A stretch of DNA of 64,000 nucleotides. It comes from Candidatus Heimdallarchaeota archaeon (GTDB taxonomy: Archaea > Asgardarchaeota > Heimdallarchaeia > JABLTI01). Below the pieces are notes generated by a model, which saw only the letters and a list, made by a program, of their open reading frames with translations, was not told the origin of the DNA and did no database searches. Position 1 is the stretch's first letter, and each line of letters starts with the position of its first letter. The stretch spans positions 32,001-96,000 of the forward strand of contig JAHLVW010000066.1 in NCBI GenBank assembly GCA_019058275.1, read 5' to 3'. Position numbers and translations under genes: made by a program. Positions 1,971-8,341 of this stretch are shown here, piece by piece.

Positions 1971-1987
1971 ACTCTAACAACTTAATC

Positions 1988-2004
1988 CTAAACAAGCTGT
2001 GCTA
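1988..2004 (-). repeat. Possible degenerate copy of the tRNA-Ile D-arm
   Basis: ctaaacaagctgtgcta matches 8318-8334 ctaaccaagctgtgcca at 15/17 positions, same orientation. Confidence 0.35.
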
Positions 2005-2310
2005 TTTTAATTAATAAAATAAAATATCTTTGATTCATCTCCAAAAAAGCTCAAGAACAATTTTGAAATATGTTATTCAGTTAATTGATATTTCTATTTC
2101 TTCTTCATCATCTAACAATTAGTACAATTGGTACAATGATTATTTCAAGCAAACCAATAGAAATTGAAATATTGCGAAAAAAGAACAAAACAGACTGCTT
2201 AAGAAAGAATATAAGTTATCTAAAATCAAGTAAATATCTAACTAGATTGAAAAACAGGTTATTCTAAAAGCAATCAAATAGCATTAAAAATTTTGGAGCG
2301 AGAAAATATA

Positions 2311-3837
2311 ATGAAGGAAAAATTCGATGTGATTGTAATTGGAGCAGGAATAGGAGGTTTGAGTGCTGCAATTTTTTTTGCGAAATATGAAAAGAAAGTG
2401 CTAGTTCTTGAGAAGCATTACATACCAGGAGGGTATCTTACATCTTTTTCCAGAAAAAACTACCAATTTGACAGTGGGGTTTTTCACTTGACAGATATGG
2501 GGGAACAAGAAACAATACCAATGTTCATAAGATTCTGGGGGAATAAAATTGAATCGGAAAAAGTAAATTACAAATTTAAGATTTTTAATGGAGAAGATTC
2601 CTACATCATATATGGGAAGACAGCTCAAAGTGATTTAGTGAAGTACTTTCCTTCTGATGAAAAAGCTATCAAGTATTTCTTTGATCTTTCATCACAAATG
2701 ATGAATCAAACACTTAGTATGGGCGCACCTAAAGCCCCCTATGAAATGAGTTTTTGGGAAAAGCTTTTGTTTGGAATAAAAGCAGTAACTAAAACCCCTA
2801 CCTTCCTAAGATTTGGACGAAAAAATGGGAGAATATTTTTCAAGAAATTATTCAAGGATAAAAATCTAGCAACAATTATCTATAGTTATTATCCTATTAG
2901 CAGCTTAATTTTATTTGGCTTCTCTTTTGGTTGGACTAATCTCTTGAAGGATGAAAATTATTATCCTATTGGAGGAATGCAAGCAATTCCTGATGCAATG
3001 GTTTCTAGTCTTAAACAAAATCATGGAGAAATCAAATTAAGTTCAGAAGTGAAAAGAATCATAGTCGAGAAAGAGAAAGCTGTTGGTGTGGAATGCCTAG
3101 ATGGTTCAAAATATTATGCAAATATCATTATTTCAAATTCGCCCATTCATTATACTTTAAATAAACTTCTAGATAGTTATTCACAATTTGATTCACAAAG
3201 AAAACAAATTGCTGAGCGAGAAATATTTTGTTCAGTCATGCTTAATTTCTTGGGTATGGATGAAGCCTTTGATTATCAAGGAACGAATTTCTTTATCATA
3301 ATGGATAAAAATGGCTTGGAGTTAAAAGAAAAGGATCTGACTCCTGAGAATTGCCCAATATTAATGATAGTTCTGCCAAAACCTGAAAAACAAAAAGGTG
3401 ACTCTATTCTTATTGGTGCGTTTCTACCATATGATTACAATAATTACTGGTCAACCAATAACTCAAAAATTAGAGGAGAGGAATATAAGAAAACAAAAGA
3501 AGAGGTTTTCAAGATTATTCTAGAAAGAATTACTCGGAAACTCGGAGAAGATTTTCAACAAGCAATAAAATTCTCTCTTGCATCAACCCCGTTAACTCTA
3601 GAACGCTATACCTACAATGAAAAAGGATCTATTATGGGGTGGAAAATGGACAAGAAAAACTATGGGAAATTTTTCCGTCATGAAACAGCAATTGATAATT
3701 TATTTCTTGTTGGGCAATGGACATTCCCAGGAGGAGGAGTTCCTGGTGCTATGGCAGGAGGGTATTATCTTGCAAAGAATATTCTAGCAAAGGAGAGTAT
3801 TAACTTAGAAGCTGATATGGCAAGAAAAGCAAAGTAA
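2311..3837 (+). CDS. Phytoene desaturase/CrtI-like FAD-dependent oxidoreductase
   Basis: VIGAGIGGL dinucleotide motif, LEKHYIPGGY, FDSG, TPLTLERYT, C-terminal LFLVGQWTFPGGGVPGA. Confidence 0.8.
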   Translation: MKEKFDVIVIGAGIGGLSAAIFFAKYEKKVLVLEKHYIPGGYLTSFSRKNYQFDSGVFHLTDMGEQETIPMFIRFWGNKIESEKVNYKFKIFNGEDSYIIYGKTAQSDLVKYFPSDEKAIKYFFDLSSQMMNQTLSMGAPKAPYEMSFWEKLLFGIKAVTKTPTFLRFGRKNGRIFFKKLFKDKNLATIIYSYYPISSLILFGFSFGWTNLLKDENYYPIGGMQAIPDAMVSSLKQNHGEIKLSSEVKRIIVEKEKAVGVECLDGSKYYANIIISNSPIHYTLNKLLDSYSQFDSQRKQIAEREIFCSVMLNFLGMDEAFDYQGTNFFIIMDKNGLELKEKDLTPENCPILMIVLPKPEKQKGDSILIGAFLPYDYNNYWSTNNSKIRGEEYKKTKEEVFKIILERITRKLGEDFQQAIKFSLASTPLTLERYTYNEKGSIMGWKMDKKNYGKFFRHETAIDNLFLVGQWTFPGGGVPGAMAGGYYLAKNILAKESINLEADMARKAK

Positions 3838-3968
3838 AGAACTAATTTTAAGCAAAAAGAATATGATTTACCTTTCTTGTTTTGAATAAAACATTTTTTT
3901 CCTTAATAAAAGTCTTGTAATAATAATTCCTTTGAAAAGGAGATTTGGATGTGAATAAGAAATAGTAT

Positions 3969-3993
3969 TGGTGGGCTCAGCCGGATTCGAACC
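3969..3993 (-). repeat. tRNA 3'-end remnant (T-loop, acceptor 3' strand and CCA), att-like
   Basis: Minus strand GGTTCGAATCCGGCTGAGCCCACCA, in the same register as the tRNA-Ile 3' end at 8200-8222. Confidence 0.8.
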
Positions 3994-4021
3994 ATGGGTC
4001 ACTTTTACTATTTTGGAATCT

Positions 4022-6188: not shown

Positions 6189-6211
6189 TGGTGAACCCGC
6201 GTGGATTCGTT
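6189..6211 (-). repeat. Second degenerate tRNA 3'-end remnant, att-like
   Basis: Minus strand CGAATCCACGCGGGTTCACCA; the plus-strand TGGTG-N10-GATTCG spacing is identical to that at 8200 and 3969. Confidence 0.65.
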
Positions 6212-6250
6212 CATCTAGCTATATAGAAAATTGAAAAAATTGCATGAATC

Positions 6251-6270
6251 CTCTGATATGTTAATCAGAG
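6251..6270. promoter_or_regulatory. Palindrome CTCTGAT-N6-ATCAGAG upstream of the TPP enzyme gene
   Basis: Perfect 7-bp inverted arms with a 6-bp spacer. Confidence 0.35.
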
Positions 6271-6331
6271 ATATGAACATAACAGATCCTAATATATTAA
6301 TAAACTACAAAAGCTTTTAAGTAAAGTAATA

Positions 6332-8104
6332 TTGATGCTCTTTGAGTTGAGAGAGATGCACGCAGCAAAGATACTCCTACAGATGTTAAGTGCTCACGAT
6401 GTCAAGCATATTTTTGGACTACCTGGAGAAACGACTCTGGAGTTGTATACAGGCTGGCAAGATTGGGAAGCTAGCCCACATCCAATTGATTATGTGTTAA
6501 CTCGAGATGAAAGAAGTTCAGCATACATGGCAGATGCTTATGCGAGAGTGAGTTTTAAACCAGGGGTAGTAGAAGTACCCAGTGTAGGCGCCACTCACTT
6601 AATTCCTGGGGTAGTTGAGGCATATAAAGCGTCTGTTCCTATGTTAGTGTTTACCTCGGATGTTCCGCTTCATACTGAACTCAGAAACATGTTGACAGCG
6701 TTTGATCAGACAGCATTATTCAAAGGAATTACAAAAGCAACAATTACGGTAACAAAAGGATCTGAAATTCCCCATGTTATCCGGAGGGCATTTCGCCTGG
6801 CAACCGGGGGAAGACCCGGCCCCATACATATACGGTTACCGATGGATGTTCTAGGCGAAGAAATTGATGATTCGGAGATATTCTCAGAACTTTATGCCCA
6901 AAAAGAGTTCGTCCGGTATCCGAGTGCGCGTCCCACAGCTGAGTTAGAAAAAATTAAGGATGCTCTTGCCCTATTAAGTTCCGCTGAACGTCCTGTTCTT
7001 ATATGTGGACAAGGAGTCCTTTTTTCCCAAGCATGGGAAGAAGTAACAGAATTTGCAGAGCTTTTGGGGATACCTGTAGGAACGACAATTTCTGGGAAGG
7101 GGAGTATTGCAGAAACACATCCTTTATCAATTGGAGTAACAGGTAGCCGCGGTGGAACACGTTTCTCGAATAGAATTGTTAGAGAAGCAGACGTTATCTT
7201 CTATATTGGGAGTAATACTGATTCAGCGAACACATCAAAATGGACCTTGCCTGCTAAAGAGTCAGGGACAAAGTTAATCCATTGTGACATCAGTGAGACG
7301 GAACCAGGGAATAATTATCAAACCGATGTGATCTTAATCGGAGACGCAAAAGGCACACTAAAAACTATGATTAATTTGGTATCAACTAAAATTACACAGA
7401 AAAAATATGATGACCTTCCCCGGATCAAGCAAATAATAAAAGATGCCAAAGAATATAATGAATATGTTTGGGAGCTAAAACAATCTGAAGAGAAACCAAT
7501 TCACCCAATGCGATTTATTCATGAGCTTTCTAAAACCATTCCTGATGATTATGTAATTACAACTGATCCAGGGGTTAGCGCGATTTATCCGTCAGCATTC
7601 CATAAATTAAAACGAGCGGGAAGAAGTATGATCTTTAATTATGCTATGGGAGCTTTAGGATATGCCATTCCTGCATCGGTTGGAGCATATTTTGCTAGAC
7701 CTGAAAGTTGCATTGTGGCTCTAACAGGTGATGGTAGTTTTGGATTCACGGTAGGCGAATTAGAAACGATTAGTAGAATTGGAGGTAACATTAACATTAT
7801 TTTATTCAATAATGGTTGTTTTGGCTGGATTAAAGGAGAACTACAGATCTCCTATGGTTCCAAATACGTAGATTTTCCTACAAATTTCCAAGTGGTGGAT
7901 TATCAAAAAATTGCTGAAGGATTCGGTTTAACAGCGTATACAGTTCGAGATCCTAAGGATCTTTCACAAGTCTTGCAAGAGGCCTTTAGTCTCAATGCAC
8001 CGACCCTTATAGATCTACAAGTTCGATCAGAGAATGAACTAATTCCTCCAGTACCCAAATGGGTTAAAATAGCAGAGAAAACAGATTTAAAATACATTTT
8101 TTAG
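6332..8104 (+). CDS. Thiamine-PP-dependent acetolactate synthase-like enzyme (likely start ATG 6356)
   Basis: IFGLPGE, RDERSSAYMADAYAR, GRPGPIHIRLP, GDGSFG...NNG TPP motif; visibly more GC-rich than flanks. Confidence 0.85.
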   Translation: MMLFELREMHAAKILLQMLSAHDVKHIFGLPGETTLELYTGWQDWEASPHPIDYVLTRDERSSAYMADAYARVSFKPGVVEVPSVGATHLIPGVVEAYKASVPMLVFTSDVPLHTELRNMLTAFDQTALFKGITKATITVTKGSEIPHVIRRAFRLATGGRPGPIHIRLPMDVLGEEIDDSEIFSELYAQKEFVRYPSARPTAELEKIKDALALLSSAERPVLICGQGVLFSQAWEEVTEFAELLGIPVGTTISGKGSIAETHPLSIGVTGSRGGTRFSNRIVREADVIFYIGSNTDSANTSKWTLPAKESGTKLIHCDISETEPGNNYQTDVILIGDAKGTLKTMINLVSTKITQKKYDDLPRIKQIIKDAKEYNEYVWELKQSEEKPIHPMRFIHELSKTIPDDYVITTDPGVSAIYPSAFHKLKRAGRSMIFNYAMGALGYAIPASVGAYFARPESCIVALTGDGSFGFTVGELETISRIGGNINIILFNNGCFGWIKGELQISYGSKYVDFPTNFQVVDYQKIAEGFGLTAYTVRDPKDLSQVLQEAFSLNAPTLIDLQVRSENELIPPVPKWVKIAEKTDLKYIF

Positions 8105-8199
8105 TCAGAGCATGAACACTAGTGTTTAGATTAAAACTCCAATTAATACTAAGAAATATTACCTGTCTTACGATTTTTTGGGAAAACAAAAGATATAAT

Positions 8200-8341
8200 T
8201 GGTGGGCCCGGCGCGATTCGAATTCGCGGAAGTGGGTTCGCGACCACAATCTTCTCACGCGACCTCCCGGTTTTTGAAGAAACCAGACTCGTCTGATTTT
8301 TTTATCAGCCGAGCGCGCTAACCAAGCTGTGCCACGGGCCC
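8200..8341 (-). tRNA. tRNA-Ile(GAU) with two introns: 37/38 (8272-8302, 31 nt) and 53/54 (8223-8255, 33 nt); CCA encoded
   Basis: Spliced: GGGCCCG TG GCAC AGCTTGGTTA GCGC G CTCGG CT GAT AA CCGGG AGGTC GCGTG TTCGAAT CGCGC CGGGCCC A CCA. Anticodon at 8304-8306; both introns form relaxed BHB motifs. Confidence 0.9.

Follow-up and report, generated by a model that had tools for sequence, protein, structure and literature searches.

Why do copies of the end of a tRNA gene recur, in one orientation, behind an intact tRNA-Ile gene of a Heimdall-group archaeon, and why does each interval between them hold a single gene unrelated to the next? These questions are raised by the stretch of DNA analysed here, 64,000 nucleotides of Candidatus Heimdallarchaeota archaeon, which we call the window (C61:32001-96000, contig C61 belonging to a 4.12-Mb assembly of 118 contigs and 32.5% GC, denoted G000). 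The original prediction, made from the letters of the window, was that an integron-like gene-capture array may lie next to the tRNA, with tRNA 3' ends serving as recombination sites and an integrase acting in trans. The reading that we favor, and consider fairly probable, is that of a tRNA-anchored accretion site, where cassettes devoid of an integrase are moved in trans by a recombinase encoded elsewhere.

Copies of the tRNA-Ile 3' end and breakpoints at them

The motif TGGTG-N10-GATTCG is found at 8200, 6189 and 3969, on one strand, and a repeat finder returned the same three sites as its top direct-repeat family (D1, with spacings of 2220 and 2011). The 4.12-Mb genome has 12 matches to this motif; seven are intact tRNAs and three fall within this 4.3-kb stretch. 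To avoid circularity, we scored the sites with an independent 25-nt matrix, built from intact tRNA-Ile genes of six other genomes only. The site at 3969-3993 reached 45.0 bits and was the best genome-wide, the resident tRNA-Ile reached 29.3 bits, and 6189-6213 reached 13.7 bits, as compared to a maximum of 14.5 bits in a reversed-genome control (8.2 Mb). Because its score lies below this maximum, the copy at 6189-6213 is degenerate and significant only locally; within the 64-kb window, scores above 10 bits are confined to the 3969, 6189 and 8200 sites. Both the repeat family and the matrix thus bear out the co-oriented motif on which the prediction was built, and so do two further repeat families (D2, D13) for the A-rich left flanks of the copies. 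No donor tRNA for either remnant was found within the source genome. The copy at 6189-6213 shares 20 of 25 bases with copies in a relative (G005) and in an NCBI contig (L034), and, as far as sequence comparison can tell, both remnants point to tRNA-Ile alleles of relatives and to different donors, as had been suspected.

A blastn comparison of window positions 1-12000 with 30 relatives placed a sharp border at the tRNA. The closest relative, G004, is 94% identical to the window rightwards from 8197, which is the tRNA 3' end, and unrelated to it leftwards. In G003 the distance from the ceramidase gene, which flanks the variable stretch on the left, to the tRNA is only 3.1 kb, and other genes lie between; the right flank is conserved in the genus. 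Co-oriented tRNA-tail copies were found behind every fetched tRNA-Ile, five of them in G005, two each in G002, G003 and G004, and one each in G008 and G010. At least nine related genomes or contigs have such stacks, with about 25 units that mostly hold one gene each. Comparison of the locus across related genomes, which had been proposed as a check, revealed that unit content and order differ between relatives. All-against-all tblastx of the stacks found no further shared units beyond orthologous blocks, and no relationship between the APH-kinase units of G005 and L034 could be detected. When the pattern was counted across the class, only 4 of the 49 genomes searched outside the family had any match, copy numbers there not being comparable by this pattern.

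The placement of one shared sequence illustrates how such stacks grow. ATTATTTTTATTTCATCCATTGGGA stands directly after the intact tRNA in G007. In G003 it stands after a displaced copy, past a 340-bp insert, and in G005 again after a displaced copy, on whose tRNA-ward side further units occupy at least 4.4 kb up to the contig end. By this arrangement, the insertion logic of left and right attachment sites (attL/attR) holds. The 340-bp insert is a unit in its own right: it bears a Cys-rich open reading frame (ORF) of 52 codons, and its G003 and G005 versions are 84% identical. Its place in G003 is between the tRNA and a three-gene unit (DegV-unknown-PlsY), and in G005 and G002 on the opposite side of that unit. 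Therefore, at least one integrase-less unit was inserted independently or moved, and movement of such a unit on its own implies an enzyme in trans. In G003, G002 and a contig from the JGI collection (L056), the three-gene unit terminates in a common arm (ctgttaaatgaaaaa.ccgtGG) and a copy. The small unit was located at L014:10176-10505 (G003), L021:3902-4239 (G005), L039:244-570 (G002) and G009:C38:32810-33007. Its ORF is zinc-ribbon-like, its central 180 nt are more than 95% identical across species, and it is the smallest mobile unit seen.

Breakpoints at the same place were observed between strains, when contigs of four sediment runs (X1 being the probable source sample) were aligned to positions 1500-9000. 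A 65-kb contig of run X5 (L031), from a strain about 96% identical, carries the ceramidase gene and the unit with the thiamine pyrophosphate (TPP) enzyme, a layout also found in L034. On this contig, window positions 2001-6283 are replaced by 1536 other bases, and past 8222 there follow a unit for a HEAT-repeat protein and then one for a 273-aa protein, with a copy after each. The homology of L034 ends at 8222 as well. In X5 the TPP unit ends with only the 26-nt core of the site. A second X5 contig has the tRNA and the neighboring GTPase genes, and left of 8197 a unit of the G004 type. In X1, a minor contig of 680 nt shows the same junction at 8222 (depth 4.9 vs 13.2). Because the X5 contigs and the minor X1 contig diverge at 8197/8222, the 26-nt core 8197-8222 is the breakpoint in natural populations; parts of X5 without contig cover carry no evidential weight. 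The proposal that the tRNA 3' end is a recombination site is supported by these exact breakpoints, seen with both relatives and strains.

In runs X3 and X4 there is an odd low-depth back-joint from 2595 to 1662 (depth 4.4), which is not at a copy. Positions 17153-21749 of L034 are 99.7% identical to G000 C5:41375-45972 on one side of the stack, and L034 is about 96% identical to C61 on the other; either the bin is of mixed strains, or a rearrangement or recent transfer joined the two regions at the stack. Contig C5 ends in a GC-rich stretch unlike the rest of the contig, with a short hairpin-forming repeat that is possibly part of an insertion sequence.

The tRNA-Ile gene, its units and stacks elsewhere in the genome

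The resident gene has two introns, the canonical one at about 8271-8301, after position 37, and a second one of 33 nt at 8223-8255, at position 53/54. Joining the exons at the second intron gives back the T arm GCGTG-TTCGAAT-CGCGC, and folding of the pre-tRNA gave no clear helix-bulge-helix for this intron. Because of its two introns, the gene escapes ARAGORN, which reports no tRNA in the window by default and still misses tRNA-Ile with introns allowed; Rfam detects it. No other tRNA-Ile(GAU) was found in the assembly, the gene in the window being the sole copy. Introns of tRNA-Ile vary in the genus. G000 and G004 carry the extra 53/54 intron, exactly at the left edge of the attachment (att) core, G007 has an extra intron in the D loop instead, and G003, G006, G008 and G010 have the canonical intron only.

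The 3' part of the gene has a history of its own. Its last third (8200-8270), GGTC-GCGTG...CGCGC-CGGGCCC, is of a tail type (CGCGC) that tRNA(CAU) genes have on other metagenome contigs (L085, L090). From the variable loop on, the tRNA-Ile genes of G000 and G004 both have the CAU-type 3' part with the 53/54 intron, and G004 keeps, at C318:6167-6209, a 43-nt displaced copy of the older CCGGC-type tail. For these reasons, the gene seems to be a hybrid, whose 3' third was probably swapped by one such recombination. In the pair of X5 contigs, the displaced copy is of the CCGGC type, the resident tRNA of the CGCGC type, and the flank past the CCA common, so that the crossover may lie in the acceptor/CCA part, at least in this one natural pair. 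Copy lengths vary: some are of about 25 nt, some span 38-43 nt from the variable loop on, and one, on C59, has 65 nt.

Further copies were sought in the rest of the genome, as had also been proposed. Upstream of the window no Ile-type copy was found in C61:12001-32000. Genome-wide, a 31-nt matrix gave 46 matches of at least 18 bits as compared to none in the reversed control, and among them are further tRNA-tail copies on other contigs. Tail stacking is thus a genome-wide feature of G000.

Several of these places can be listed. Same-orientation copies lie behind tRNA-Ala(GGC), tRNA-Val(GAC) and tRNA-Val(CAC), on C19 (20126-21474 and 14043-17915) and C107 (33535-43429). More copies, on strands that are not all alike, are at C48:32678-36647, C73:33170-35372 and C79:647-1447, and spacings on these five contigs range from 0.27 to 8.6 kb. 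Contigs C58 (L003) and C59 (L002), which overlap by 141 nt in reverse complement, together make up a single stack of about 21 kb, which has a Met-type copy, at least five CGCGC-type copies and, at C59:5272-5346, a low-scoring tRNA(CAU)-like gene (Rfam 24.4 bits). The 65-nt displaced copy, at C59:3522-3586, includes the 53/54 intron. The cargo of this stack consists of an ABC transporter, an Mrr-like nuclease, DGC-domain proteins and a peptidase S41-like protein, and no integrase.

Within the window, each interval does hold one accessory gene (CrtI-like, LVIVD and TPP), with the ceramidase to the left. The TPP gene is indeed richer in GC; with 40.6% it reaches or exceeds the 99th percentile of long ORFs. 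Copies with at least 90% amino-acid identity occur in two settings, namely tRNA-Ile stacks (L031, L034) and a site that lacks tRNA-end copies (L032, L033). At the latter site (L032/L033, 10001-13663) the TPP gene is two genes from a ketol-acid reductoisomerase (KARI) gene, in a tightly packed neighborhood with a CBM9-like gene between. Since an enzyme at least 90% identical is found near a KARI gene in other Heimdall-group genomes, this neighborhood suggests an acetolactate-synthase role and a chromosomal origin of the captured TPP gene. In G007 the TPP orthologue is divided between two contig ends, and no copy lies within 6 kb of it. As for the LVIVD protein, its only close homologue (58% identity) is in L056, where it stands in a tRNA-Ile stack in the same copy-gene-copy order, co-oriented, with different neighbors.

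The CrtI-like segment is bordered by a tRNA-end copy on the right and, on the left (about 2000-2003), by a junction without a copy; the homology of L034 ends at 2003. A weaker D-arm match at 1988-2004 had been listed among the delimiters, and this part of the prediction did not stand. Of its 17 bases 15 agree, which may plausibly be due to chance by our estimate, neither a T arm nor an acceptor part adjoins it, and an 18-mer resembling it is present in unrelated DNA on C89. As it is not a tRNA remnant, the segment has a tRNA-end copy on one side only. In G009, no Ile-type copy lies within 9 kb of the CrtI homologue.

Both flanks of the locus are conserved. Among seven genomes of the genus, amino-acid identity is 93-98% for the first and 81-97% for the second of the two GTPases on the right, with tRNA-Ile always adjoining, and the tandem Rab/Ras-like genes are kept next to tRNA-Ile in all genus genomes examined. 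The ceramidase on the left is 77-84% identical in G003, G005 and G009, and 96% in L034. It is split also in the contigs L031 and L034, which are about 96% identical to the window, and forms a single ORF of 596-664 aa in G003, G005 and G009. The split might be either a real frameshift or a pseudogene common to the strain group.

Table 1. Features of the locus, with positions counted from the first nucleotide of the window
Feature	Position	Strand	Basis
Left conserved flank, neutral/alkaline ceramidase, two ORFs (1-327; 408-1970)	1-1970	+	Pfam Ceramidase_alk, Ceramidse_alk_C
D-arm-like match, judged no tRNA remnant	1988-2004	-	15/17 bases; straddles breakpoint with L034
Segment of CrtI/amine-oxidase-like flavin adenine dinucleotide (FAD) oxidoreductase, gene 2311-3837	2004-3968	+	Pfam Amino_oxidase, NAD_binding_8
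3' end copy of intron-less CCGGC-type tRNA-Ile, attR-like	3969-3993	-	24/25 bases as in G003 tRNA-Ile 3' end; 45.0 bits
LVIVD-repeat protein cassette, gene 4022-6085	3994-6188	-	Pfam LVIVD; tRNA-end copies on both sides, co-oriented
Degenerate tRNA-Ile 3' end copy, attR-like remnant, CCGCG/CCACG type	6189-6213	-	13.7 bits; third best in window; intergenic; family D1
TPP-enzyme cassette, gene 6356-8104, acetolactate synthase large-subunit-like	6214-8196	+	Pfam TPP_enzyme_N/M/C
att core, T-loop start through CCA and 3 nt, equal to the 3' exon of the tRNA	8197-8222	-	Exact breakpoints
tRNA-Ile(GAU), CCA encoded	8200-8341	-	Rfam tRNA, 24.6 bits over 8203-8341
Right conserved flank, two Ras/Rab-like small GTPases (8571-9158; 9366-9935)	8571-9935	+	Pfam Ras

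The search for a recombinase and the competing explanations

The absence of an integrase from the intervals, as stated in the original prediction, proved to extend to all stacks and to the tRNA-Ile contigs of the genus. A Pfam search of the roughly 25 units from at least nine genomes or contigs found no recombinase; the cargo consists of enzymes, transporters, surface proteins, kinases, acetyltransferases, an HNH protein and a PolB-exonuclease fragment. The tyrosine recombinase family PF00589 has no match on any tRNA-Ile contig of 11 genus genomes, nor near the locus on C61, and tblastn found no integrase pieces at the unit borders in the window. When the six recombinases of the genome were compared with the stacks by tblastn, no match was convincing, the sole weak one, to an integrase N-terminus, being at the far end of the L034 stack (E = 6e-4). 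Candidates among the recombinases are a C55 type, conserved in the genus, a C9/C5 type, and three paralogues of 484-507 aa on C20, C36 and C78; the genes of these three contain no tRNA-like stretch (attP) inside. A scan of IMG/VR with the Ile-type core gave 25 contigs, in which 23 matches fall within complete tRNA genes recognized by ARAGORN, and tRNA-Ile is not among these. As these contigs have a GC content of at least 37%, against about 32% for this lineage, and none is equally AT-rich, no link to the lineage is seen. The JGI metagenomes, scanned with the CGCGC-type core, yielded no helper element; what they did contain were two intact tRNA(CAU) genes and, in AT-rich environmental contigs, additional stacks that again lack an integrase.

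How could such units nonetheless have come to stand behind the tRNA? In the accretion model that we favor, the 3' end of tRNA-Ile(GAU), from the T loop to the CCA and a few bases beyond, would be the chromosomal attachment site. Small circular units, each with one to three accessory genes and its own copy of the tRNA-Ile 3' end, would recombine with it. The comparison of relatives shows that each insertion leaves the tRNA intact and pushes the spare tail copy, with everything behind it, away, so that units and copies alternate behind the tRNA; crossovers between any pair of copies would be able to excise or reshuffle units. Cutting and joining would be the task of a site-specific, probably tyrosine, recombinase of a mobile element or of the host, which would have to be encoded elsewhere because the units encode none.

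It needs to be mentioned that a number of observations weigh against this model. The genome encodes six Xer-like tyrosine recombinases, all of them away from tRNAs and copies, and no link to tRNA-Ile was found for nine others from relatives; only one of these nine is beside a tRNA, which is tRNA-Gln, and on the wrong side of it. Homology of the TPP gene with its copy-free site spans only 6307-8110 and has no copy beside it, which leaves its entry into the stack unexplained. The junctions at about 2003 and at 6284, seen against the sister strain L034, are away from any copy; other recombination (deletion and replacement) therefore also shapes the island, and rearrangements outside the att sites are among the events that edit it. 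The strain data are assembled contigs and not raw reads, and circle junctions, none of which was seen, are beyond their reach. Finally, metagenome assemblies tend to break at active, strain-variable elements, and integrase-bearing units may be missed systematically. Of the proposed integrase in trans, then, one part is supported, as the 340-bp unit moved without an integrase of its own, and the other part is not, as no recombinase could be tied to the site.

One may assume that the units were once self-mobile integrative elements (proviruses or plasmids), which were inserted serially at tRNA-Ile, lost their integrase and most of their genes by deletion, and persist as worn remnants that are immobile unless a new element arrives. 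Serial integration at tRNA genes with displaced partial tRNAs is documented, for example, in the tycheposon islands of Prochlorococcus (10.1101/2020.12.28.424599). Some cargo is of a mobile type (the PolB-exonuclease fragment and the HNH protein in G004, a protein resembling winged helix-turn-helix/DnaD_N proteins in G005), the weak integrase match at the far end of the L034 stack would be welcome to this view, and the junctions at 2003 and 6284 show deletion and replacement. Yet about 25 units contain no integrase remnants, and the 340-bp unit, being at different positions relative to the three-gene unit in different species, indicates that an integrase-less unit was inserted more than once. 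Moreover, the one-gene LVIVD unit retains both its copies although its proteins are only 58% identical. We thus regard decay of larger elements as unlikely. It is also imaginable that no integrase takes part at all, and that DNA of relatives with a conserved tRNA-Ile stretch enters by a RadA-dependent single crossover, with deletions arising by homologous recombination between copies. The varying copy lengths (about 25, 38-43 and 65 nt) would fit whatever homology the donor carried, a crossover in the acceptor/CCA part is the outcome expected from homology alone, and the genus assemblies have no tRNA-linked integrase. On the other hand, 10-25 nt of identity is generally known as very short for efficient homologous recombination, and the same type of stack stands behind several tRNAs, always at the 3' end and always co-oriented, as integrase targets do. 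Many copies also keep GG before the T loop, preceded by a non-tRNA 'A/G-T', which hints at a shared arm on the side of the element. Taken together, this explanation appears improbable, even more so than decay.

Could the locus, after all, be a true integron, or an attC-site cluster that lacks an integrase (CALIN), such as has been reported from metagenome-assembled genomes of archaea? The layout, with mostly one-gene units between short repeats, is superficially similar. But the repeats consist of tRNA 3' ends instead of imperfect palindromes, the neighborhood lacks an IntI-type gene, the genes point in both directions, and the array is anchored at a tRNA, so that we give this idea hardly any weight. 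The accretion model may have a more far-reaching version: Heimdall-group archaea could hold a dedicated gene-cassette system, a counterpart of the integron, with tRNA tails as sites, shuffling behind functional tRNAs, and a recombinase encoded elsewhere or on a helper element, in which introns at the site border (53/54) may take part. We put this forward tentatively, as a possibility rather than an expectation.

Known systems and meaning of the locus for Asgard archaea

The tycheposon islands of Prochlorococcus are tRNA-adjacent, push older elements inward, contain scattered partial tRNAs and are heterogeneous within cultures (Hackl et al., 10.1101/2020.12.28.424599). The present locus resembles them in its tRNA anchor, successive displacement, partial tRNA copies and heterogeneity of element content. 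Unlike tycheposons, which have their own tyrosine recombinase and leave fragmented integrases in the islands, at least nine stacks contain no integrase here; the units are mostly single-gene ones of 0.34-3.3 kb, and the host is an Asgard archaeon. Accretion has its parallel also in integrative and conjugative elements (ICEs) of streptococci, whose cis-mobilizable relatives (CIMEs) are said to be att-flanked segments without recombination genes, which form tandem arrays at the 3' end of a conserved gene and are served by the integrase of another element. The LVIVD and TPP units, as well as the 340-bp units of G003, G005 and G002, are likewise att-flanked and devoid of recombination or transfer genes. 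While CIMEs are few per site, belong to a known ICE family and have an adjacent integrase, the units described here are many and small, carry unrelated cargo, and are accompanied by no helper element that we found.

Among archaea, gene capture at tRNA genes by integrases of the SSV/pNOB8 type was reportedly described by She et al. (Nature 2001). An archaeal host, a tRNA target, direct repeats of tRNA parts flanking the captured genes, and captured genes becoming fixed are common to both cases. In contrast, SSV-type integration leaves a split integrase gene, int(N)/int(C), at the borders and has attP within the integrase gene, neither of which was found here. Casposons, which have Cas1, terminal inverted repeats and a target duplication of about 14-15 bp, are unlike the present units as well, since there is no Cas1 in the cargo, there are no terminal inverted repeats, and the repeats are of 25-65 nt. 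With integrons the likeness is one of outcome, in that single-gene units, with or without a promoter, would be inserted, excised and reordered at short sites by an enzyme from outside the units. Unlike in integrons, there is no IntI-type gene beside the array (it is flanked by the ceramidase and the Ras-like GTPases), no common promoter, gene orientation is mixed (TPP and CrtI-like on the plus strand, LVIVD on the minus strand), and the primary site is a functional tRNA gene. The repeats are made of the T-stem 3' strand, the acceptor and the CCA of tRNA-Ile; a repeat search found no matching inverted arms at the unit borders, and there is no attC-type fold. The term integron-like, as originally proposed, is therefore apt as regards the outcome, and in the strict sense inapt as regards an adjacent integrase, an attC fold, a common promoter and gene orientation. 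Of what is expected from a tRNA-anchored accretion island, an intact tRNA with co-oriented repeats and breakpoints at the copies are present, and an integrase in the elements was not found. Published mobile elements of Asgard archaea are large proviruses, aloposons and plasmid-like elements, and in our search of the literature on these archaea we came across no account of mostly single-gene units, devoid of an integrase, being stacked behind tRNA genes.

The genomes of Asgard archaea are large and contain many accessory genes acquired by transfer, but the routes of this gene flow are poorly known. The locus described here shows a fine-grained route of this kind, by which genes for a surface protein, a TPP enzyme, an oxidoreductase, a kinase or a transporter are docked and swapped singly behind a tRNA, with exchange at exact sites both between species and between strains of one sediment population. 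Even the essential tRNA-Ile gene itself seems to have been remodelled in this process, with its 3' third swapped and an intron standing at the border of the site. Should a trans-acting recombinase come to light, the system would be an archaeal analogue of gene capture as known from integrons, and the tail copies could then tag the donor lineage of each unit.

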